From the NCBI GenBank assembly GCA_027021705.1, contig JALUTT010000176.1, forward strand, positions 13,247-77,246: a DNA stretch of 64,000 nt, in the 5' to 3' direction. Position 1 is the stretch's first letter. Each line of letters starts with the position of its first letter. A program made the position numbers and the translations under genes. The notes under the pieces were generated by a model, which was given only the letters and a program-made list of their open reading frames with translations, was not told where the DNA came from and searched no databases. This DNA is from Anaerolineae bacterium (lineage in GTDB: Bacteria > Chloroflexota > Anaerolineae > S140-20). Positions 31,769-43,465 of this stretch are shown one piece after another.

Positions 31769-33130
31769 CTAGCTTGCCCCAACGGATTGCGGCGAGGCGA
31801 CGGCCGACCGCAGGTGCTTGCCGATCAGGTAGACGCCGGCGTACATCCCGAGGATGTACAACACCAGGAGGAAGATCAGGGAAAAGGCGATCTCGCCGGC
31901 CGAGACGGTGGGGGAGACCGCATCTTCCACCCGCTGCAGGCCGAAGACGATCCACGGCTGCCGCCCCACCTCGGTCAGGATCCAGCCTGTGGTGGAAGCC
32001 AGGTAAGGCAGGGCGGTGGCCCACACCAGCCCCTTGAGCAAGCGCGGGCTGTCGGCGAAGCGCTCCCGGGCGACCAGATAGACCGCCCAGGCGGCCAGCG
32101 CCAGCATCAGGAAACCGGCCCCCACCATAAGGCGGAAGCTCCAATAGGTGACGTTGATGGGCGGGACGTAGTTGCCAGGGCCATACCGGGCTTCGTAGGC
32201 GGCCTGCAGCTCCTGGATCCCTTTCACCTCACCGGAAGGGCGGTTGTAGGCCAGGATGCTCAACAGGTAGGGAATGCGCAACGAGATCAGCTCTCGCCCG
32301 GTGGCCTCGTCGGTGATGGTGAGGATGGAGAAAGAGGCGGGGTTTTCGGAACGCTGCAAAGCCTCGGCCGCAGCCATCTTCATCGGCTGGACGGCGACGA
32401 TGTGCTGGGCCTGAGTATGGCCGACCAGCACGATCAGGAGGGTTCCCAGAAGGGCGTACACGGCTGCGACGCGGAAGGAGCGCATCACCATCGCATCCCG
32501 GCGACCGCGCAACAGGAGATAGGCGCTCAGGCCCAGGATCACGAAACCCGCCGTGGCGATGCCGGCGGCGAGCACATGGGGGAATTGCACCCACACGTTG
32601 GGATTGGTGATGAGGGCGAAGAAGTCCACCATCTCGGCGCGACCGTTGCGGATGACGTACCCCACCGGCTCCTGCATAAAGGAATTGGCGATGAGGATCC
32701 ACAGGGCCGAGATGTTGGACCCCAGGGCGATGAGCCACATCGTAGCGGCGTGCAGCTTGGGGGAGAGCTTCTCCCAGCCGAAGACCCACACACCGATGAA
32801 GGTGGACTCTAGATAGAAGGCCAGCAGGGCCTCAATGGCCAGGGGCGCGCCAAAGATGTCGCCCATAAAGCGGGAGTATTCCGACCAGTTCATGCCGAAC
32901 TGGAACTCCTGGACAATGCCGGAGACCACGCCCAGGGCAAAGTTGATCAGAAAAACCTTGCCCCAAAACTTCACCATATCCTTGTACACCTCGTCCTGGG
33001 TGCGGACGTAGAGGGTCTCCAGGATTGCCAGCAGGATGGTGATCCCCAACGTCAGGGGGACGAAGAAGAAGTGGATGATGGTGAGGACGGCGAACTGCCA
33101 ACGGGCTAAGGCCAGGGCCAACGTGTCCAT
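31769..33130 (-). CDS. cydA: Cytochrome bd ubiquinol oxidase subunit I (short Q-loop)
   Basis: LARWQFA...HFFFVPLT, EFQFGMNW, QPMKMAAAE, EVGRQPW. Confidence 0.97.
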   Translation of the reverse strand: MDTLALALARWQFAVLTIIHFFFVPLTLGITILLAILETLYVRTQDEVYKDMVKFWGKVFLINFALGVVSGIVQEFQFGMNWSEYSRFMGDIFGAPLAIEALLAFYLESTFIGVWVFGWEKLSPKLHAATMWLIALGSNISALWILIANSFMQEPVGYVIRNGRAEMVDFFALITNPNVWVQFPHVLAAGIATAGFVILGLSAYLLLRGRRDAMVMRSFRVAAVYALLGTLLIVLVGHTQAQHIVAVQPMKMAAAEALQRSENPASFSILTITDEATGRELISLRIPYLLSILAYNRPSGEVKGIQELQAAYEARYGPGNYVPPINVTYWSFRLMVGAGFLMLALAAWAVYLVARERFADSPRLLKGLVWATALPYLASTTGWILTEVGRQPWIVFGLQRVEDAVSPTVSAGEIAFSLIFLLVLYILGMYAGVYLIGKHLRSAVASPQSVGAS

Positions 33131-33472: not shown

Positions 33473-34390
33473 ATGAAACTCCACCTGATCCGTCCCAACG
33501 CCTACCACCTCCGGGGCGGCTCCAACGCCGGCCTCCTCGTCCACGGCAAAGAGGCCCTGGTGATTGACGCCGGCCTGGATGACGATGCAGGCCGGCGCAT
33601 CCTCCGCTTGGCGGAGGGGCTGGGGGTCTCGATCACAGCCATCCTCATCACCCACGCCCACGCCGACCACTTCGGCGGCGGGGCCTTCCTGCGCCGGCGA
33701 ACCGGCGCGCCCGTCTACGCACCGGCGGTGGAGGCCGGCATCGTCGCCCATCCGCTGCTGGAGCCCCTCTTCCTCTTCGGCGGGGCGATGCCCATCGCCG
33801 AACTGCGGGGGCGGTTCACCCTGGCCCGACGCGCCTGCCCGGTGGATCACCCGCTGGAGCCCGGCACCCTCTCCATCGGCCCGTTCACCGTCGAGGTCGT
33901 CCCCCTGCCCGGCCACGCTCCAAATCAGGTCGGCATCGCCTGGGAAGATGTCCTCTTCTGCGCCGACGCCTTCTTCCCCACCAAAGTGCTACAAAAGCAT
34001 CCCATCCCCTTCTGCGCCGACGTGGGACCGGCACTGGAAACGCTCGCCCGCCTGCCCGCGATGCCCTATGCTTTCTTCGCCCCCGGCCACGGCGATGTCC
34101 TGACCCCGGAGACCCTGCCCGCCGTCATCGAGGCCAACCGGCAACGGCTCCAGGCCATCCTCCGGGTCGTTCAGGAGACCTTGGACGAACCCCGGGAGAC
34201 GGCGGTCCTGCTGAAGGCGGTGGCCGACCACCTGGGAGCCGAGCACCGCGCCCCCTGGCAGCACTACCTGGCCCAGACCACCGTTTTGGCCGCCCTGGCC
34301 TATCTGCGGGAGCAGGGTCTGGTGGATGTGGAGATGCGGGAGAACCGGCTGCTGTGGACTCGGAAACCCGAGCCTTTCGAGAACCGATAA
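33473..34390 (+). CDS. MBL-fold metallo-hydrolase with C-terminal wHTH-like tail
   Basis: THAHADHFGG, PGH motifs. Confidence 0.9.
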   Translation: MKLHLIRPNAYHLRGGSNAGLLVHGKEALVIDAGLDDDAGRRILRLAEGLGVSITAILITHAHADHFGGGAFLRRRTGAPVYAPAVEAGIVAHPLLEPLFLFGGAMPIAELRGRFTLARRACPVDHPLEPGTLSIGPFTVEVVPLPGHAPNQVGIAWEDVLFCADAFFPTKVLQKHPIPFCADVGPALETLARLPAMPYAFFAPGHGDVLTPETLPAVIEANRQRLQAILRVVQETLDEPRETAVLLKAVADHLGAEHRAPWQHYLAQTTVLAALAYLREQGLVDVEMRENRLLWTRKPEPFENR

Positions 34391-34872: not shown

Positions 34873-37212
34873 ATGAAAGCCATATCCAAACTCTACGCGC
34901 TGACCGCCCTGATCCTGGTGCTCAGCGTCGTGCTGACGGCTTGCGGTGGTGGGGCGACCCCCACGAAAGCCCCTCAACCGACCAAGCCGCCGGCGGAGAA
35001 ACCCACCAAAGCGCCGACCGAAGCACCAATGGAGAAGCCGACGGAGGCGCCGGCGAAGAGGGAGATCGGCAAGATCACCGTTGGTACCAACGCCGAGTAC
35101 CCGCCCTTCGAGTTCGTGGACGAGAGCGGCAACATCGTCGGCTTCGACATTGACCTGATGAAGGCCATTGCCGAGGCGGCGGGCTTCGAGGTCGAGTTCG
35201 TCAACACCCGCTGGGACGGCATCTTCGTCGCCCTGGCCTCCGGCGAATTCGACGCGGTCATCTCGGCGGCGACCATCACCGAGGAGCGCAAGCAGACCGT
35301 TGACTTCTCCGATCCCTACTTCAACGCCGGTCAGATCATCGCGGTCCGCGCCGACAACACCGACATCAAGGGACCGGAGGACCTGGACGGCAAGGTGGTC
35401 GGTGTGCAGCAGGGCACCACGGGCGACATCTGGGTCACCGAGAACACCAAGGCCGAGGTCAAGCGCTATGATGAGATCACCCTCGCCTTCCAGGCCCTGG
35501 CCAACGGCGATGTGGACGCCGTGGTCAACGATGCGCCCACCTCTGCCGACATCATCAAGGCCAACCCGGAGATGAACCTGAAGCTCGTGGGCGAGCCCTT
35601 CACCGAGGAACTCTACGGCATCGCCGTGCGCAAGGACTTCCCCGAGCTGCTGGAGGCCATCAACAAGGGATTGGCCGAGGTGAAGGCCAGCGGCAAGTAC
35701 GACGAGATCTACAACAAGTGGTTCGGCCTGCCGGAGGTGGAGGAGAAGCCGGCCGAGGCGATGGCCGAGACCATCATCATCGGCACCACCGACAAGGTGA
35801 CCGACCTTGACCCGGCCAACTCCTACGACTTCCACACCTGGGAGATCCATCACAACACGATGGACACCCTGCTCCACTACATCCCCGGCACCACCGACCT
35901 GGAGCCCGGCCTGGCCAAGGACTTCCCCGAGGTGAGCGACGACGGGCTGGAGTACACCTTCCGTCTCAAAGAAGGGCTCAAGTTCCCCGATGGCACCCCC
36001 TTCAACGCCGAAGCGGTGAAGTGGTCCATTGATCGGGTGATGGCCCTGGGCGGCGATCCCAACTGGCTGGTGACCAGCTTCGTGGACCGCGTCGAGGTGG
36101 TGGACGAGTACACCGTCAAGTTCGTCCTCAAGCAGCCGGTCAACTACTTCCCGCTGCTGGTGGCCACTCAGCCCTACGCCCCCGTCAGCCCCAACTGCTA
36201 TCCCGAGGACCGGTTCGACTCGGACAGCACCTGCGGCGGCATCGGCCCCTACCTCATCACCAAGTGGGAGCGGGACGTGGAGCTGGACCTGACGGCCAAC
36301 CCCGACTACCCCGGCCCGGCCCCCAAGACCAAGAACATCATCGTCAAGTACTTCGCCGATGCCACGACGATGCGGCTGGCGCTGGAGAACGGCGAGATTG
36401 ACATCGCCACCAAGACCCTCAACCCCACCGACTACGAGGACCTGCGCCAGAACCCCGACTTCCAGGTGATCGAAGGGCCTGGTGCGCAGATCCGCTACCT
36501 CTGCTTCAACCACACCATTGCGCCCTTCGACAACCCGCTGGTCCGCCAGGCCATCGCCTACGCGGTGGATCGGGACGCGGTGGCCAACAAGGCTTTCCTG
36601 GGCACCCACCAGCCGCTCTACTCGATGGTCCCGATGGGGATGTGGTCCCACATTGATGCCTTCCCCAAGCGCGACATCGAGAAGGCCAAGGAGTTGCTCC
36701 AGGAGGCCGGCTACAGCGCCGACAACCCGCTGGAGATTGACCTCTGGTGGACCCCCACCCACTACGGGGACACGGAGGCCGATGTGGCCGCCGTCATCAA
36801 GGAGGCCCTGGAGGAGACGGGGATGATCAAGGTCAACCTCCAGAGCGCCGAGTGGGCCACCTATGTGGACCAGTTCGGCTCGATGGGCTTCTACCTGCTG
36901 GGGTGGTACCCCGACTACCTGGATCCCGACAACTACACCACCCCCTTCGCCGACTCCGAGGCCTCTAAGGACATCGGCATCTTCTACGCCAGCGAGGAGA
37001 TGGATGCCTTGCTGAAGGCGGAGCAGGCGGCCACCGATCTGCGCGGTGCAGAGCGAGAGCAGATCTTCAAGGACATCCAGGAGCTGTGGGCCAAGGACAT
37101 CCCCACCATCCCGCTGACCCAGGGGACGCTCCTGGTCGCGGCTCAGAAGGACGTGAAGGGCATCGTCCTCGACACCAATATGCTCTTCCACTACTTCCTG
37201 GTCTACAAGTAG
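34873..37212 (+). CDS. Fused ABC substrate-binding lipoprotein: family 3 (polar amino acid) + family 5 (peptide/nickel)
   Basis: Lipobox LTAC; aa ~67-285 GTNAEYPPFE...TITEER...YNKWFG; aa ~300-779 DLDPA...YTFRLKEGLKFPDGTPFNAEAV...VRQAIAYAVDR. Confidence 0.93.
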   Translation: MKAISKLYALTALILVLSVVLTACGGGATPTKAPQPTKPPAEKPTKAPTEAPMEKPTEAPAKREIGKITVGTNAEYPPFEFVDESGNIVGFDIDLMKAIAEAAGFEVEFVNTRWDGIFVALASGEFDAVISAATITEERKQTVDFSDPYFNAGQIIAVRADNTDIKGPEDLDGKVVGVQQGTTGDIWVTENTKAEVKRYDEITLAFQALANGDVDAVVNDAPTSADIIKANPEMNLKLVGEPFTEELYGIAVRKDFPELLEAINKGLAEVKASGKYDEIYNKWFGLPEVEEKPAEAMAETIIIGTTDKVTDLDPANSYDFHTWEIHHNTMDTLLHYIPGTTDLEPGLAKDFPEVSDDGLEYTFRLKEGLKFPDGTPFNAEAVKWSIDRVMALGGDPNWLVTSFVDRVEVVDEYTVKFVLKQPVNYFPLLVATQPYAPVSPNCYPEDRFDSDSTCGGIGPYLITKWERDVELDLTANPDYPGPAPKTKNIIVKYFADATTMRLALENGEIDIATKTLNPTDYEDLRQNPDFQVIEGPGAQIRYLCFNHTIAPFDNPLVRQAIAYAVDRDAVANKAFLGTHQPLYSMVPMGMWSHIDAFPKRDIEKAKELLQEAGYSADNPLEIDLWWTPTHYGDTEADVAAVIKEALEETGMIKVNLQSAEWATYVDQFGSMGFYLLGWYPDYLDPDNYTTPFADSEASKDIGIFYASEEMDALLKAEQAATDLRGAEREQIFKDIQELWAKDIPTIPLTQGTLLVAAQKDVKGIVLDTNMLFHYFLVYK

Positions 37213-37258
37213 GCGAGCCCATTGCGCCCGTCTGGGTCGCTCTCATCGCAGTCAACCG

Positions 37259-37290
37259 CCAGGGGCGGGTCACCGGCCCGCCCCTGGTTT
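37259..37290 (+). terminator. Strong hairpin after the SBP gene (terminator or mRNA stabiliser)
   Basis: CCAGGGGCGGG-loop-CCCGCCCCTGG followed by TTT. Confidence 0.6.
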
Positions 37291-37295
37291 ATGCT

Positions 37296-37337
37296 CCCTC
37301 CCGCAGGTCACGCGGGTGGATGAGACCTGCGAGAGGG
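37296..37337. repeat. Minimal hairpin of the CCCTCCCGCAGG repeat family
   Basis: CCCTCCCGCAGGTC...GACCTGCGAGAGGG. Confidence 0.75.
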
Positions 37338-37350
37338 TTCCCGGAAGAGG

Positions 37351-38376
37351 ATGGCTATGCGATCCCTACGTGTCTACATCATCACCCGCATCCTGCTGAC
37401 CATCCCGATGCTCTTCATCCTGGTGACGCTGGTCTTCTTCATTATGCGGGTGCTCCCCGGCGACCCGGTGAAGGCCATCATCCGGCCCGGTGCACCCCAG
37501 GAGTACATTGACGAGATCCGTCACACATTGGGGCTGGACCGCCCCCTGCTGGTCCAGTACGTGGACTATCTGGGCGACCTGGTCCGCTTGGACCTGGGCA
37601 CGACCTTGGCCCCGGTCCGAGGGCGATCGGTGCTCCAGGATTTGAAGGACAAGTTCCCGGCCACGTTGGAGCTCTCCTTGGCCGCCATCCTCGTCGCCAG
37701 CCTCGTCGGGATCTTCACGGGGGTGCAGTCGGCCTACCACCGCCGTTCCACCCTCGACTACGGCCTTCGCCTCTACTCCATCGTCATCTACACCATACCC
37801 GTCTTCTGGCTGGGGCTGATGCTTCAGTTGATCTTCAGCGTGAAGCTGGGCTGGCTGCCCGTCTACGGGCGAGTGGACACGCTGGACATGGCCCCGCGCA
37901 CCATCACCGGCCTCTACGTGGTGGACAGCATCCTGACGCGGAACAAGGAGAGCCTGATCAACAGCCTCCAGCACCTGATCCTGCCGGCCCTCACCCTGGG
38001 ACTCTACCTGTCGGGGGTCTTCACCCGCCTCACCCGCTCCAACATGCTGGATGTGCTGCGCCAGGACTTCATCACCGCCGCCCGAGCCCGAGGCATCGCC
38101 GAGCGGGCCGTCATCTACCGCCACGCCCTCAAGAACGCCTTCATCCCGGTGCTGACGATGATGGGGCTCCAGTTCGCCCTGCTCCTGGCCGGGGCCGTGC
38201 TTACCGAGTCCACCTTCACCTGGCCGGGGTTGGGACGCCTCCTGGTGGAGCGGATCGAGTATCGGGACTTCCCGACCGTCCAGGGGGCCGTCGTCTTCTT
38301 CGCCCTCCTGGTCTCCCTGGTGAGCCTGATCGTGGACATCATCTACGCCTATCTGGACCCCCGCATCCGTTACTGA
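37351..38376 (+). CDS. dppB: Peptide ABC permease DppB/OppB
   Basis: PGDPV, LGLDRPL, PATLEL, TAARARG...HALKNA. Confidence 0.93.
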   Translation: MAMRSLRVYIITRILLTIPMLFILVTLVFFIMRVLPGDPVKAIIRPGAPQEYIDEIRHTLGLDRPLLVQYVDYLGDLVRLDLGTTLAPVRGRSVLQDLKDKFPATLELSLAAILVASLVGIFTGVQSAYHRRSTLDYGLRLYSIVIYTIPVFWLGLMLQLIFSVKLGWLPVYGRVDTLDMAPRTITGLYVVDSILTRNKESLINSLQHLILPALTLGLYLSGVFTRLTRSNMLDVLRQDFITAARARGIAERAVIYRHALKNAFIPVLTMMGLQFALLLAGAVLTESTFTWPGLGRLLVERIEYRDFPTVQGAVVFFALLVSLVSLIVDIIYAYLDPRIRY

Positions 38377-38413
38377 CCACAACACGCAACACGTAACACG
38401 CCACACGCCCCTT

Positions 38414-39592
38414 ATGGCTGAACAAACCCTCACCCTCGAACAACCCTGGGAAGACGTTGGACTCCTGCGCCGCATCTGGCGAGGCCGTCGCTGGTACGGT
38501 GCGGAGTGGTACATCACCGTCGCCGGAGGGGTCCTCCTGACCCTCATCCTCCTGATGACCTTCCTGGCCCCCGTCCTGGCCCCCTTTGATCCCATCAAGA
38601 CGGTGGGAGGGCGCTTCACGCCCCCTGGCGGGGGAAAGCAATGGCTCATCGCCGAGGCCGAGAACGAGGCCATCCAGAGGCCGGAGGACCTGGCCGGCCG
38701 CAAGGTGGGCGTCCTGCCGGATACCACCGGAGAAGTACTGGCCGAAGAGCTGGGAGCCGAAGTCGTCTACTACCCCTCGATGCTCAAAGCCTTCCAGGGG
38801 CTGACGCGCCGTCGGCCAGAAGTGGAAGCGCTTATCGTGGAGCCCGAAGCTGCGGGCAACTTTATGAAGACCTACGGACGCTTCGTGCGTCAGGTCGGTC
38901 CGCCCTTCGGCCCCACCTTCGTCCTGGGAACCGACAACCTGGGGCGGGACATCCTCAGCCGGATCATCTGGGGAGCCCGCTCGGTCCTCCTGGTGGCCAT
39001 CCTTTCCGCCCTCTTCTCCAGCGTCGTCGGCGTCCCCCTGGGGCTCCTCTCCGGCTTCTGGGGGGGCAAGCTGGACCGGGTGCTCTCCTTGGTGATGGAC
39101 AGCATCTACTCCTTCCCCGGCCTCATCCTGGCCATCGCGATGGCAGCGATGCTGGGGCCGGGGGTGCTGAACATCGCCGTCGCCATCGCCGTCGTCTACA
39201 TCCCCACCTACTTCCGCATCGTGCGCGGCCAGACCCTCTCGGTCAAAGAGGAGCTCTACGTTGAGGCGGCCCGCAGCCTGGGAGCCAGAGCCCGCACCAT
39301 CCTGTGGCTCTACGTCTTCCCCAACGTCATCCCCTCCATCGTCGTCCTCTTCTCCCTCAACGTGGCCGACAGCATCCTGACCGAGGCGGGACTGAGCTTC
39401 CTGGGGTTGGGGCTTCCCCCGCCCACCCCCGACTGGGGGTTCGACCTGAACAAAGGGAAAGCCTACCTGCCCAACGGCTACTGGTGGCCCATCACCTTCC
39501 CCGGCCTGATGATCACCCTGGTCGCCCTAAGCTTCAGCCTGCTGGGCGAGGGGCTGGGCGAGATCCTGAACCCTCGGCTCACGGAGTCGTAA
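38414..39592 (+). CDS. dppC: Peptide ABC permease DppC/OppC with an inserted family-3 SBP lobe
   Basis: APFDP...LGTDNLGRDILSR, EAARSLGA, EAGLSFLGLG; ~94-aa insert in the first external loop. Confidence 0.9.
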   Translation: MAEQTLTLEQPWEDVGLLRRIWRGRRWYGAEWYITVAGGVLLTLILLMTFLAPVLAPFDPIKTVGGRFTPPGGGKQWLIAEAENEAIQRPEDLAGRKVGVLPDTTGEVLAEELGAEVVYYPSMLKAFQGLTRRRPEVEALIVEPEAAGNFMKTYGRFVRQVGPPFGPTFVLGTDNLGRDILSRIIWGARSVLLVAILSALFSSVVGVPLGLLSGFWGGKLDRVLSLVMDSIYSFPGLILAIAMAAMLGPGVLNIAVAIAVVYIPTYFRIVRGQTLSVKEELYVEAARSLGARARTILWLYVFPNVIPSIVVLFSLNVADSILTEAGLSFLGLGLPPPTPDWGFDLNKGKAYLPNGYWWPITFPGLMITLVALSFSLLGEGLGEILNPRLTES

Positions 39593-39684
39593 GGGGGTGA
39601 CCGAAAACCGTTGGAGGCCGTAGGGTAGAAACGCAGTGCCGTTGTGCCTCCACACTTCAACATTGCATTCGAGTTGTAAGGGCC

Positions 39685-39713
39685 TTGCCCGCCCTGAACC
39701 ATCGTTGTATACT
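39685..39713 (+). promoter_or_regulatory. Possible promoter of the inserted ATPase gene
   Basis: TTGCCC-17 bp-TATACT. Confidence 0.5.
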
Positions 39714-39759
39714 TTAGGCAGATGACTTATAAGTCAGTTGACTGAATCCTGGGGGTATT

Positions 39760-41421
39760 GTGTTCGCCTTCTACCCTGCTTATCTGCGGGAGCGCTTCAC
39801 AAACCGCACCTATGAACTGGCTTTCCTGGAGCGGGTCGCCGAAGACCTGCGACGGGGACAACCCCGTCACGTGGCGATCTTTGGCCTGCGGCGCATCGGC
39901 AAGACGGTCTTGTGTCAGGAACAGGCATCGCGTTTGCTCTCCCAGGGAGACCTCGCTCCCGTCTACCTGGACCTGGAGGAACTCTGTACAGCGCCGGAGA
40001 TCTTCGCCCAACGCTACATTGGTCTGACCTGCTTCTGGGTTCTGACCGGAGCCAAGGGGCCCATTGACCCTTATCTCACAGTGGAAGGCCTGCTGGAGAC
40101 CCAGGCGGTCGAGGTTCCCTTAGTCGCCCGGACGGCCGGGAGCATCACCCAGGCGCTCAGCCGCAGCCGGCCCGACTACGCCGCCCTCCTCAAGCTGGCC
40201 TTCGACTTTCCCGACCACCTGGCTCAGGCCGTTGGCCGCCCCCTGATCTGCTTTCTCGACGAGTTCCCCGAGCTGTCCAGCCTGAGCAACTTTCCCGGCG
40301 TGGGAGATCCCCTCCAGCACTTCCGTGCTGCGCTGCAGCGGCAATCCTATGTGAGCTATGTCATCACCGGCTCGGCCATCACGGTGATGGAACGGCTTAT
40401 CCGCCATCACGAGTCTCCCCTGTTCCTCCAATTCCGCACCCTGGAACTGCGGCCTTTCACCGAGGAAGATACCAAGGCTTTGTTGGAGAAGCTGATCGGC
40501 CCGCTGGCCCCGGACGCCCAGGCAGCGGTTCACCGCTACACCTTCGGCCATCCTTTCTACATCACGGTGCTGGCCGAGCGGCTGCGAGAGCTGGTACCCG
40601 AGGCCCCCGAAGGGGTGAACCGCTCCCACGTGCAGCATGCCTTCCTGCTGGAGACCCTCTCGCGCCAGGGCCAGATCTACAGTTACTGCCGCTATCTGTA
40701 TGATATCTCTCTGCAGAAGGCCCGGGGTTACGGGCTCCTGAAGGCGCTCCTCCAAGTATTGGCCGAGGAAGAGGGGCTCACCCTCTCCGAAACAGCCCGC
40801 CGGCTGCGACGGCAAGCCTCGGCAACCCGGGAGTACTTACGCTGGTTGATGGAGGTGGACCTGATTATCGAGGAGGACGGGCGATACTACTACCGGGATC
40901 CTGTGCTCCGCTTCTGGGTGGCCTACACCAGCCGGGGGATTGAGGTTGACCTCTTTCCGCGACGGGAGGAACTGGAAGGACTGATCGCCGACTTGCAGGA
41001 GCGTTTCCAGCGGGTCTCCACGCAGTTGGGACGGGCCAAGGAGAGCGAGGTGCGGGAACTGCTGCGGAGGATGGCCGGACAGACCGTGGATGGGGCACTT
41101 TTGGGCCGGGCCGGCCCTCTGCACATCCCTAAGTTTGTCCGTGTCGAGCCCTATCGCTCCTCAGATGGCCGGATTGAGATAGACGCCTTGGCCGAGAACG
41201 ATGAGCGGTGGATCGTTGAGGTAAAGTGGCGACGGAGGCGGGTGGGACAAAAGGAACTGAAACGCCTCTTGGAACTGGCAGAGCAGTTTCAGGCCCGGCC
41301 CTGGTGTATCTCCCAGGCCGGCTTCACTCCAGAAGCCATCGCTTACGCTGAGCATCACGGCATCCTGCTCAGTGATGGCCACGATCTGGCTGCCTTAGAA
41401 CGGGCCGTCTTGGCCAGATAG
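39760..41421 (+). CDS. Archaeal-type AAA ATPase + wHTH + C-terminal PD-(D/E)XK nuclease-like domain
   Basis: FTNRTYEL, Walker A GLRRIGKT, Walker B FLDEF, EIDALA...IVEVKW...AGFT. Confidence 0.85.
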   Translation: MFAFYPAYLRERFTNRTYELAFLERVAEDLRRGQPRHVAIFGLRRIGKTVLCQEQASRLLSQGDLAPVYLDLEELCTAPEIFAQRYIGLTCFWVLTGAKGPIDPYLTVEGLLETQAVEVPLVARTAGSITQALSRSRPDYAALLKLAFDFPDHLAQAVGRPLICFLDEFPELSSLSNFPGVGDPLQHFRAALQRQSYVSYVITGSAITVMERLIRHHESPLFLQFRTLELRPFTEEDTKALLEKLIGPLAPDAQAAVHRYTFGHPFYITVLAERLRELVPEAPEGVNRSHVQHAFLLETLSRQGQIYSYCRYLYDISLQKARGYGLLKALLQVLAEEEGLTLSETARRLRRQASATREYLRWLMEVDLIIEEDGRYYYRDPVLRFWVAYTSRGIEVDLFPRREELEGLIADLQERFQRVSTQLGRAKESEVRELLRRMAGQTVDGALLGRAGPLHIPKFVRVEPYRSSDGRIEIDALAENDERWIVEVKWRRRRVGQKELKRLLELAEQFQARPWCISQAGFTPEAIAYAEHHGILLSDGHDLAALERAVLAR

Positions 41422-41488
41422 TAACGGCTCAGGGGCGTCGCACCTCTGCCAATCCAGACAACTCAAGGACCTCTTCGAGATTCAACCT

Positions 41489-42469
<981 letters not shown>

Positions 42470-42472
42470 GCT

Positions 42473-43465
42473 ATGCAGAACGGTTACTTGGTCGAAGTTC
42501 AGAGCCTGAAGAAGTGGTTCCCCGTTCAGCAGAGCTTCCTCGAAAACCTCCTCTCCCGGCGGAAAGAGTTCGTGCGGGCCGTGGATGGGGTGAGCTTCGC
42601 CATCCGGCGGGGGGAGGTCTTCGGGTTGGCCGGCGAGAGTGGTAGCGGCAAGACGACGACGGGGCGGCTGATCCTCCGCCTCATCGAGCCCACCGAGGGC
42701 CAGATCCGCTTCGACGGCATCGAGATCACCTCCCTTCCGCCGGAGGAGATGCGCCGGCTACGCCGTCGGATGCAGGTCATCTTCCAGGACCCCTTCGCCT
42801 CGCTCAACCCCCGGATGAAGATCGGCGACGCCATCGGCCACGGGCTGGTGATCCACGGCCTGGCCCAGGGAGAGGCGAAGCGGGAGGCCGTGCTGGAGAT
42901 GATGGAAAAGGTGGGGCTAACGCCGGCGGCCATCCTCTACGAGAAGTACCCCCACCAACTCTCCGGCGGCCAGCGCCAGCGGGCCGTCATCGCCCGGGCT
43001 CTGGTCACCCATCCCGACCTGGTCGTGGCCGATGAGCCCATCGCGATGGCCGACGTCTCGGTCCGGGCGATGCTCCTGGAGCTGATGCGCCAGCTCAAGG
43101 AGGAGTTTCACCTCACCTACCTCTTCATCACCCACGACCTGGCCACAGCCAAGTACATCTGCGACCGCATCGCGGTGATGTACCTGGGCAAGATTGTCGA
43201 GGTGGGGTCCCTGGAACAAGTCTACCGCAGCCCCGTGCACCCCTACACCGAAGCGCTCCTGGCGGCGGTCCCCGTCCCCGACCCCCGGGCGCGGAGGACG
43301 ACGCCGATCCCCAAAGGCGAGATCCCCAACCCCATCAACCCACCCCCGGGCTGCCGCTTCCATCCCCGCTGTCCTCTGGCCGAGCCGGTCTGCAGCCAAG
43401 AAGAGCCCACCTTGATTGAGGTCGAAGCGGGCCACGCCGTCGCCTGCCACGTCCGCACCCGCTGA
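42473..43465 (+). CDS. dppF: Peptide ABC ATPase DppF
   Basis: [25 protein letters not shown]...VACH. Confidence 0.95.

Follow-up and report, generated by a model that had tools for sequence, protein, structure and literature searches.

A single lobe of a family-3 substrate-binding protein in a permease loop of a peptide-type ABC importer of Anaerolineae

To our knowledge, accessory extracytoplasmic domains on the permeases of ATP-binding cassette (ABC) importers occur in very few systems, of which the P2 domain of MalF is the textbook case, and the fusions between substrate-binding proteins (SBPs) and permeases known to us so far carry whole two-lobe domains. We describe here a DppC/OppC-type permease of an Anaerolineae bacterium in which one lobe of a family-3 (amino-acid type) SBP is built into the loop between transmembrane helices 1 and 2 (TM1-TM2). 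The gene belongs to the operon of a peptide-type importer in a 64,000-nucleotide stretch of contig JALUTT010000176.1, the whole of which is called the window below. A full-text literature search, mostly without subscription journals and at the level of titles and abstract openings, did not find a single SBP lobe in a permease loop described.

P2 of the E. coli maltose importer MalFGK2 folds independently within a periplasmic permease loop, as the DppC insert appears to do from its model and topology, and both importers are of type I. In the accessible text of one study, P2 binds MalE with a dissociation constant of 7-22 uM and does so through the transport cycle (PMC6906923). The fold of P2 is immunoglobulin-like and it lies between TM3 and TM4, whereas the insert, in a DppC/OppC-type subunit, is a Rossmann-like SBP lobe in the TM1-TM2 loop; homology of the two was rejected on account of the other fold and the other loop, and the likeness is one of functional analogy only. 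SBP binding has been demonstrated for P2, whereas for the insert we infer it.

The importers GlnPQ, with the substrate-binding domains (SBDs) SBD1-SBD2, and OpuA share with the insert a family-3-type fold that is covalently attached to an ABC permease, and chains of GlnP SBDs (6h30, 4la9, 4kqp) were among the sequence and fold matches of the insert. In GlnPQ and OpuA these are complete two-lobe domains at the permease terminus that bind and deliver substrate, unlike the insert, which consists of lobe II alone, lies inside a loop and occurs in a transporter family that uses family-5 SBPs; no complete two-lobe SBD at a permease terminus is present here. The architecture is a variation on accessory loop domains and SBD-permease fusions. 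Chain 6GPM, the D2 domain of an arginine-binding protein (ArgBP), is the same structural unit as the insert, folds alone and is very stable; it is a laboratory dissection, whereas the insert is a natural stand-alone lobe within a membrane protein. The S1S2 core of ionotropic glutamate receptors and the bacterial receptor GluR0 are also family-3-type folds spliced into membrane-protein loops, and GluR0 (1iiw, 1ii5) and 2pyy were among the matches of the insert, but these receptors have both lobes, divided between two segments, and the lobes close on glutamate, whereas the insert is one lobe. A further relative in function may be the scoop motif of E. coli DppB, which likewise lies in the TM1-TM2 periplasmic region of a Dpp permease and, in the part of the structural report available, engages the SBP (PMC12136057). 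Unlike the globular domain of 95 amino acids in DppC, the scoop comprises only some 30 residues of DppB, arranged as a helix-loop-helix, and reaches into the cleft of the SBP.

The insert in DppC

The dppC gene (38414..39592, + strand) encodes 392 amino acids, with a Pfam BPD_transp_1 match at residues 206-390 (E 1.8e-31) and an OppC_N match at residues 36-62 that scored 23.0 bits, slightly under the cut-off of 23.9. NCBIfam models for Opp, Dpp, Nik and Gsi C-type permeases also matched, all under their cut-offs; these matches start at residue 166-169 and so bypass the insert. TM1 was placed at about residues 29-61 (38498..38596, + strand) by a strong hydrophobic stretch in the hydropathy profile, by the OppC_N match and by a model helix at 30-50. 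The insert follows at residues 73-169 (38630..38920, + strand), as delimited by sequence, profile, model and orthologue comparison. Between the equivalents of residues 72 and 170 there are 97 residues in this DppC and 3 in insert-less orthologues, and in the orthologue alignment the edges are sharp, with a conserved Pro71 before the insert and the invariant Gly172-Thr173-Asp174 of the GTDxxGRD motif after it.

A preliminary description of this DNA had reported about 94 additional amino acids in the DppC loop and had aligned them by eye with residues ~153-244 of the SBP encoded upstream. Positions 38630-38911 do translate in the DppC frame to those 94 residues, and BLASTP aligned the insert with SBP residues 154-243 (35332..35601, + strand), which are lobe II of its family-3 domain, at 31 of 92 positions identical (34%, E 1e-10). 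When the insert was searched against its own genome, the adjacent SBP was the best match after the insert itself (E 1.8e-7), and the next two matches had E values of 0.19 and 0.30. A phmmer search of 1.84 billion representative proteins returned seven matches at E<=1e-3; one was a DppC with the same insert, and the other six were genuine SBP_bac_3 proteins, with lobe II as the matching part and a best E value of 2.2e-10. A profile built from six inserts matched 75 PDB sequences at E<=1, with 4zv1_A at the top (5e-16, residues 98-190) and the 92-residue chain 6gpm_A at 1.8e-11; the matches listed were family-3-type SBPs, permease-fused GlnP domains, BvgS/EvgS sensor domains and glutamate-receptor cores. 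Pfam did not call SBP_bac_3 on the insert and gave only NMT1 (E 0.019), under the cut-off. Since Pfam and NCBIfam are blind to the insert, the homology is visible only in pairwise, full-library and profile searches, and in public annotation the proteins that carry it are merely named 'ABC transporter permease'.

Chain 6GPM holds D2 of Thermotoga ArgBP as an isolated domain; D1 of that protein is given as residues 20-114 plus 207-233 (PMC7589609). As D1 is made of two segments, D2 is a contiguous stretch between both hinge crossings, and this layout, with the match to 6gpm_A, agrees with the earlier assignment of the insert to the small lobe that the two hinge strands enclose. Isolated D2 is reported to denature at 102.6 C (PMC11328109). 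As an autonomous domain, the insert represents lobe II (D2) of a family-3 amino-acid-binding protein. Its sequence similarity to SBP_bac_3 (PF00497) extends over lobe II only, and in place of two lobes closing at a hinge there is only the equivalent of SBP residues 154-243, flanked by TM1 and GTDxxGRD. It is a fragment of the SBP_bac_3 fold and no member protein of that family.

An AlphaFold2 model of the window DppC, built on an alignment of 25 orthologues, had a mean predicted local distance difference test score (pLDDT) of 85.7 and a predicted template modelling score of 0.77, with blocks of the insert at pLDDT 90-95. In the model of the insert five strands (76-81, 97-100, 116-119, 139-142 and 158-165) alternate with four helices. 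Foldseek with the whole model gave E. coli DppC as the top match (8z1w_B, 3.1e-17; 8j5q_C, 2.5e-13), and together with the Pfam domains and an operon that holds DppB, a family-5 SBP and two oligo_HPY ATPases this identifies the protein as an OppC/DppC-type permease of the PepT family. For the insert, the same search then matched 4zv1 at 6.8e-6 and ArgBP, GlnH and GlnP SBD2 at about 1e-4 or better, over approximately 100-130 columns, so that the match to lobe II of family-3 proteins came out positive by fold as it had by profile.

Some orthologous inserts are longer (about 115 residues). This long version is the same domain with the second helix extended; hhalign of 23 long against 6 short inserts gave a probability of 97.3% (E 1.7e-11, 77 columns), and the best PDB match of the long insert was again 4zv1_A, at 3e-6. 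The AlphaFold2 model of DppC of Pelolinea submarina was poor overall (mean pLDDT 58.9), and the insert was its best part (73-85); only the insert was taken further, in a search that cuts away stretches of low confidence. It was superposed by VIA-align on lobe II of Peb1A with Z 10.8 and a root-mean-square deviation (rmsd) of 2.2 A over 94 residues, and on 6gpm with Z 8.6 and 88 of its 92 residues aligned; the matches of the long variant ranged over Z 8-10.8 and rmsd 2.0-2.9 A at about 90 residues. The AlphaFold2 secondary structure, Foldseek and VIA-align all gave the type II binding-protein fold of lobe II.

In the parts of the E. coli DppBCDF report that could be consulted, the TM1-TM2 region is periplasmic, and that of DppB carries the scoop motif, which enters the cleft of docked DppA, while DppC differs there (PMC12136057). 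With TM1 preceding the insert, this topology places the lobe on the extracytoplasmic side and on the SBP-docking face of the transporter.

The DppC of genome G011 (L026:2042-3295, - strand) and its relative P0005 have a second insertion, of 26 residues, in the membrane domain after a conserved AIAMAA. A family-3 SBP of 343 amino acids (P0009) has a tandem lobe II, with residues 125-216 and 212-302 both matching the lobe profile at 2e-14, another sign of lobe II moving as a module.

Distribution, history and ligand-site residues

Among 401 Anaerolineae genomes, 45 had a DppC membrane part that matched at E<=1e-80 (67-84% identity), while paralogues reached at most 48%. The 45 genes that were compared came from 44 of these genomes and from G011, and the remaining genome, G105, was omitted for its frameshift-split gene. 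In that genome (locus L093, G105:C1:902500-913000) dppB and dppC are each split in two frames by frameshifts or assembly errors, separate family-3 and family-5 genes lie upstream, and the dppC fragment keeps the C-terminal part of the lobe. The insert was found in 32 of the 45 orthologous DppC proteins, with about 95 residues in 24 and about 115 residues in 8, and 13 proteins were without it; it is therefore not absent from orthologous loci, as it might have been had it been peculiar to the window. Pelolinea submarina MO-CFX1, whose genome record is complete, carries it as well. A word-indexed protein search with the insert region returned only three proteins, a misleadingly rare result, and the genome searches show the wider spread.

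A species-wide scan covered one genome for each of 185,579 species, which overlap with those of the class sample, and the best 80 loci were kept. Anaerolineae or other Chloroflexota accounted for 46 of these, 38 of them with the lobe. The other 34 loci, from Spirochaetota, Desulfobacterota, Actinomycetes, Humimicrobiia and two archaeal metagenome-assembled genomes (MAGs), had the lobe in no case and in all cases combined a plain DppB with a family-5-only SBP. DppC orthologues at 62-72% identity were seen in Spirochaetota, Desulfobacterota, Actinomycetes and archaeal MAGs (L122, L125-L134, L138, L143-L177). In a tree these genes of other phyla interleave with those of Anaerolineae, which points to horizontal spread of the transporter or to contigs binned wrongly.

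In a tree of lobe II (91 columns, weakly resolved), 24 inserts stood on one side of a branch and 34 lobes of free or fused SBPs on the other, with a Shimodaira-Hasegawa-like approximate likelihood ratio support of 90.9. The window insert is nearest to another insert (42% identity) and shares 34% with its own SBP; with the inserts grouping together, a recent copy of the neighbouring SBP was ruled out as the source. With five paralogues as the root, a class-only tree of the DppC membrane part shows the long-insert clade as sister to all other genes and places the insert-less genes among insert-bearing ones, so that three changes are required. One basal gain with at least three losses, as read from this tree, had to be softened, since the wider tree that includes the other phyla has an unresolved backbone and six changes in its best topology, and a tree holding all 56 insert-bearing DppC rows together was not rejected (approximately unbiased test, p-AU 0.198). 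Row L141, which is cut at a contig end so that its insert state is undeterminable, was excluded from these wider-tree counts. We conclude that the lobe was captured a single time, which fits these trees, and was likely lost afterwards; at least one loss is indicated because DppB with the same SH3 insert adjoins both lobe-bearing and lobe-less DppC.

The ratio of nonsynonymous to synonymous substitution rates (dN/dS) was 0.10-0.38 for the insert and 0.015-0.09 for the rest of the gene in the seven close pairs with finite values, so that the insert is under purifying selection. Mean pairwise identity was 0.32 among inserts and 0.46 among SBP lobes. The preliminary description had judged the insert to be in frame, well diverged, and probably old and selected, and its presence in 32 of 45 orthologues together with the dN/dS values bears this out.

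Residues of lobe II were counted, in SBP numbering, in 34 SBP lobes and in 31 inserts (23 short and 8 long). Positions 179, 181-183 and 220 are ones that we take to line the ligand site in proteins of the HisJ/LAO/GlnH type, and we take 154, 182 and 220 to touch the carboxylate and amino groups of the ligand there. Gln179 was present in 34/34 SBP lobes and in 0/31 inserts, Gly181 in 32/34 against 10/31, and Thr183 in 31/34 against 12/31, whereas Ser or Thr at position 182 occurred in 34/34 SBP lobes and in 30/31 inserts. Asp220 was found in 32/34 SBP lobes, in 19/23 short inserts (21/23 if Glu is counted as well) and in 0/8 long inserts, and Gln154 of the first hinge strand was retained in 16/23. 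The lobe II motif, GVQxGTT with an Asp after the last strand, is not preserved in the inserts. This pattern of decay fits a domain that is kept for its fold and surface and not as a canonical half-site.

The operon and its companion domains

The importer operon (34873-43465, + strand) was delimited from open reading frames (ORFs) and Pfam. Its first gene (34873..37212, + strand) encodes a fused, lipoprotein-type SBP of 779 amino acids, in which a family-3 domain (SBP_bac_3, residues 68-285, E 1e-48) stands N-terminal to a family-5 domain of the peptide/nickel type (SBP_bac_5, residues 343-698, E 8.2e-94). NCBIfam matches of this protein to LAO, cystine and GlnH types and to NikA, GsiB and DppA types were all under their cut-offs; since both the SBP and DppC missed the NCBIfam equivalog cut-offs, 'Dpp' is used here for the type and not for the substrate. 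A DppB/OppB-type permease of 341 amino acids (37351..38376, + strand; BPD_transp_1 8.6e-47, BPD_transp_1_N 3.9e-11) precedes dppC. Downstream are a DppD-type ATPase of 326 amino acids (41489..42469, + strand; ABC_tran 1.7e-30, oligo_HPY 1.1e-19) and a DppF-type ATPase of 330 amino acids (42473..43465, + strand; ABC_tran 9.9e-34, oligo_HPY 7.3e-19). Between dppC and dppD the operon is split by a gene unrelated to the importer (39760..41421, + strand, 553 amino acids), which encodes an archaeal-type ATPase_2 domain and a C-terminal restriction-endonuclease Mrr_cat domain (Pfam 1e-8 and 8.7e-10); in the compared orthologous loci dppD follows dppC immediately, without this gene. The upstream neighbours are ordinary, namely cytochrome bd oxidase subunit I (31769-33130, - strand, Pfam E 1.4e-165) and a metallo-beta-lactamase-fold hydrolase (33473-34390, + strand, Pfam 8.8e-26).

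Fused SBPs were seen in the window, at L018:5775-8099 and L026:7630-9933 and in L052, L055 and L056, and separate adjacent family-3 and family-5 genes in G019, G059 and G105, so that the family-3 domain is fused in some insert-bearing loci and a gene of its own in others. Two divergent types of family-3 domain occur in insert-bearing operons, one window-like (45-76% identical) and a second at 30-35%. A fusion with a different family-5 half (about 30% identical) was found in a genus without this DppC group. Fusions of family 3 with family 5 are common in the class and arose more than once, from two family-3 and at least two family-5 types. The entire long-insert clade, including Pelolinea submarina, has family-5-only SBPs; those at L086:4625-6340, L087:4006-5691 and L147:3109-4782 match the window SBP and SBP_bac_5 in two pieces, and there appears to have been a mid-protein insertion or rearrangement in them.

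Many orthologous DppB proteins have an addition of their own, a bacterial SH3 domain in the TM1-TM2 extracytoplasmic region just past the part that corresponds to the E. coli scoop motif. Bacterial SH3 domains often bind the cell wall. Examples with Pfam SH3_3 are L018:4240-5697 (- strand, 1.7e-6), L022:1964-3325 (+ strand, 3.1e-8) and L079:2775-4031 (- strand, a weak match at 0.0034). SH3-bearing DppB proteins are 416-499 amino acids long and plain ones 336-346, and orthologue comparison showed that the window DppB is without the SH3 insert common in its orthologues. In one subclade the DppB loop insert reaches about 430 residues and consists of an SH3-like part and a long stretch of repeated W-x-G segments (L019:4368-6683, + strand; ORFs of 762-822 amino acids in L059, L064, L065, L066, L069 and L070); Pfam names no family for the W-x-G-rich stretch. 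Both permeases were readable in 39 class loci, of which 17 had the lobe only, 12 the lobe and SH3, 10 SH3 only and none neither. A lobe-less DppC thus stands only beside an SH3-bearing DppB in the class, which suggests overlapping roles. As the orthologues of other phyla have neither addition, the lobe and the SH3 domain are a habit of this lineage and not a necessity.

Possible role of the lobe

Lobe II is suited to insertion into a loop because it is contiguous, enters and leaves through two adjacent hinge strands, and folds alone. Globular and conserved, the lobe sits on the docking face with its ligand site decayed, mostly in operons with family-5 SBPs, and it is best explained as an arm by which the SBP is recruited or steadied. 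The lobe would then no longer be half of a ligand clamp. By analogy with the MalF P2 loop, it would form an arm on the outer, SBP-docking side of the translocator, where it may recruit, orient or retain the operon's own family-5 SBP through the transport cycle as P2 holds MalE. In part of the family an SH3 domain was gained in the TM1-TM2 loop of DppB, and its role may overlap that of the lobe. We give this explanation, tentatively, a probability of roughly 0.45.

Several observations weigh against it. The lobe is dispensable in evolution, being absent from 13 of the 45 class orthologues and from all 34 of the other phyla, where DppB is plain as well. Compared with the membrane part, its dN/dS is 3-6 times as high, and the wider tree, with its unresolved backbone, takes six changes in its best topology. 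The retained Ser or Thr at position 182, and Asp220 in the short inserts, would allow some ligand contact. That lobe-less DppC occurs only next to SH3-bearing DppB amounts to two independent contrasts, and the position of the lobe relative to the docking site is a predicted one, derived from topology and from E. coli structures that have no insert.

The preliminary description had proposed that the lobe docks, tethers or swaps lobes with the family-3 portion of the fused protein, so that peptide import would be linked to occupancy by amino acids, and had suggested co-occurrence of the insert with the double SBP as a test. The SBP was not resolvable in 16 of the 45 class loci. Where it was, a family-3 domain, fused or adjacent, was present in 13 of 20 insert-bearing loci and in 1 of 9 insert-less ones, a mixed outcome; the other 7 insert-bearing loci had none, as had 8 of the insert-less. 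Recruitment of two divergent family-3 types to insert-bearing operons speaks for such a partnership too, as do the conserved motif residues kept by the family-3 domain of the fused SBPs (for example R139, G181-T182-T183 and D220, invariant in nine sequences). However, SBPs of family 5 only are found in those insert-bearing groups that are oldest and largest, and in the species-wide scan, with 7 insert-bearing loci having a family-3 domain, 12 being cut by contig ends and 19 showing none on either strand of the fetched region, 19 of the 26 resolvable loci were without it. In G029, the single insert-less class locus with family 3, a fused SBP lies beside an insert-less DppC; the genus that has a fusion with another family-5 half is without this DppC group; the insert is no copy of the neighbouring SBP; and there are only two phylogenetically independent contrasts for co-occurrence with family 3 or with the DppB SH3 domain, which leaves no statistical power. 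A three-chain prediction of the family-3 domain, the family-5 domain and the lobe gave a score that was not specific by the tool's own control and counts neither way. With at least 19 insert-bearing loci lacking a family-3 domain, docking or sensing of the family-3 half was not borne out as the general role, and we regard it as unlikely. The many insert-bearing loci with family-5-only SBPs, G029 and the independent fusions together indicate that the lobe came first and needs no family-3 partner; a derived interaction between lobe and family-3 domain in the subclade of the window is possible.

A retained half-site, by which the lobe contacts an amino acid or a peptide terminus and serves as sensor, gate or hand-over site where the translocation pathway opens, would account for the Ser/Thr at the T182 position, the Asp/Glu at the D220 position in short inserts and the retention of Gln154. 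Yet the loss of Gln179 from every insert, of Gly181 from all but 10 of 31 and of Asp220 from all eight long ones makes this quite improbable, as do the missing lobe I, which bears the carboxylate-binding Arg in the parent family, and the dissection of Thermotoga ArgBP, in which arginine-sensing scaffolds were, in the accessible text, obtained from the truncated monomer and D1 and not from D2 (PMC7589609). The lobe might instead stand outside the transport cycle, as a stable decoration for folding, complex stability, transporter pairing or envelope contact. Orthologous operons that appear intact without it, in the class and in other phyla, point that way, as do its low pairwise identity, its dN/dS above that of the rest of the gene and the potentially wall-binding SH3 domain in the companion DppB; against it are the constraint that dN/dS of 0.10-0.38 represents, the confident fold of the insert in both deep branches and its place on the SBP-docking face, and we see a small chance that it holds. 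Very unlikely, in our estimate, is a split receptor, in which the lobe would pair in trans with a lobe of the docked SBP (of family 3, by exchange, or of family 5) and form a composite site gating ATP hydrolysis. If that were true, occupancy by amino acids or peptides would be read by the transporter itself, and family-3 domains would have been recruited repeatedly because the lobe was already in place.

The lobe is a real, old and selected feature, and by analogy with the described systems we infer that its most likely function is that of an SBP-recruiting arm. A single SBP lobe was here built into a permease loop and long kept in a whole bacterial lineage. As a natural case of an SBP lobe that is an autonomous domain, it bears on the origin of SBPs from single lobes, and it offers a testable case of how the peptide-type importers of monoderm bacteria may hold their lipoprotein SBPs.

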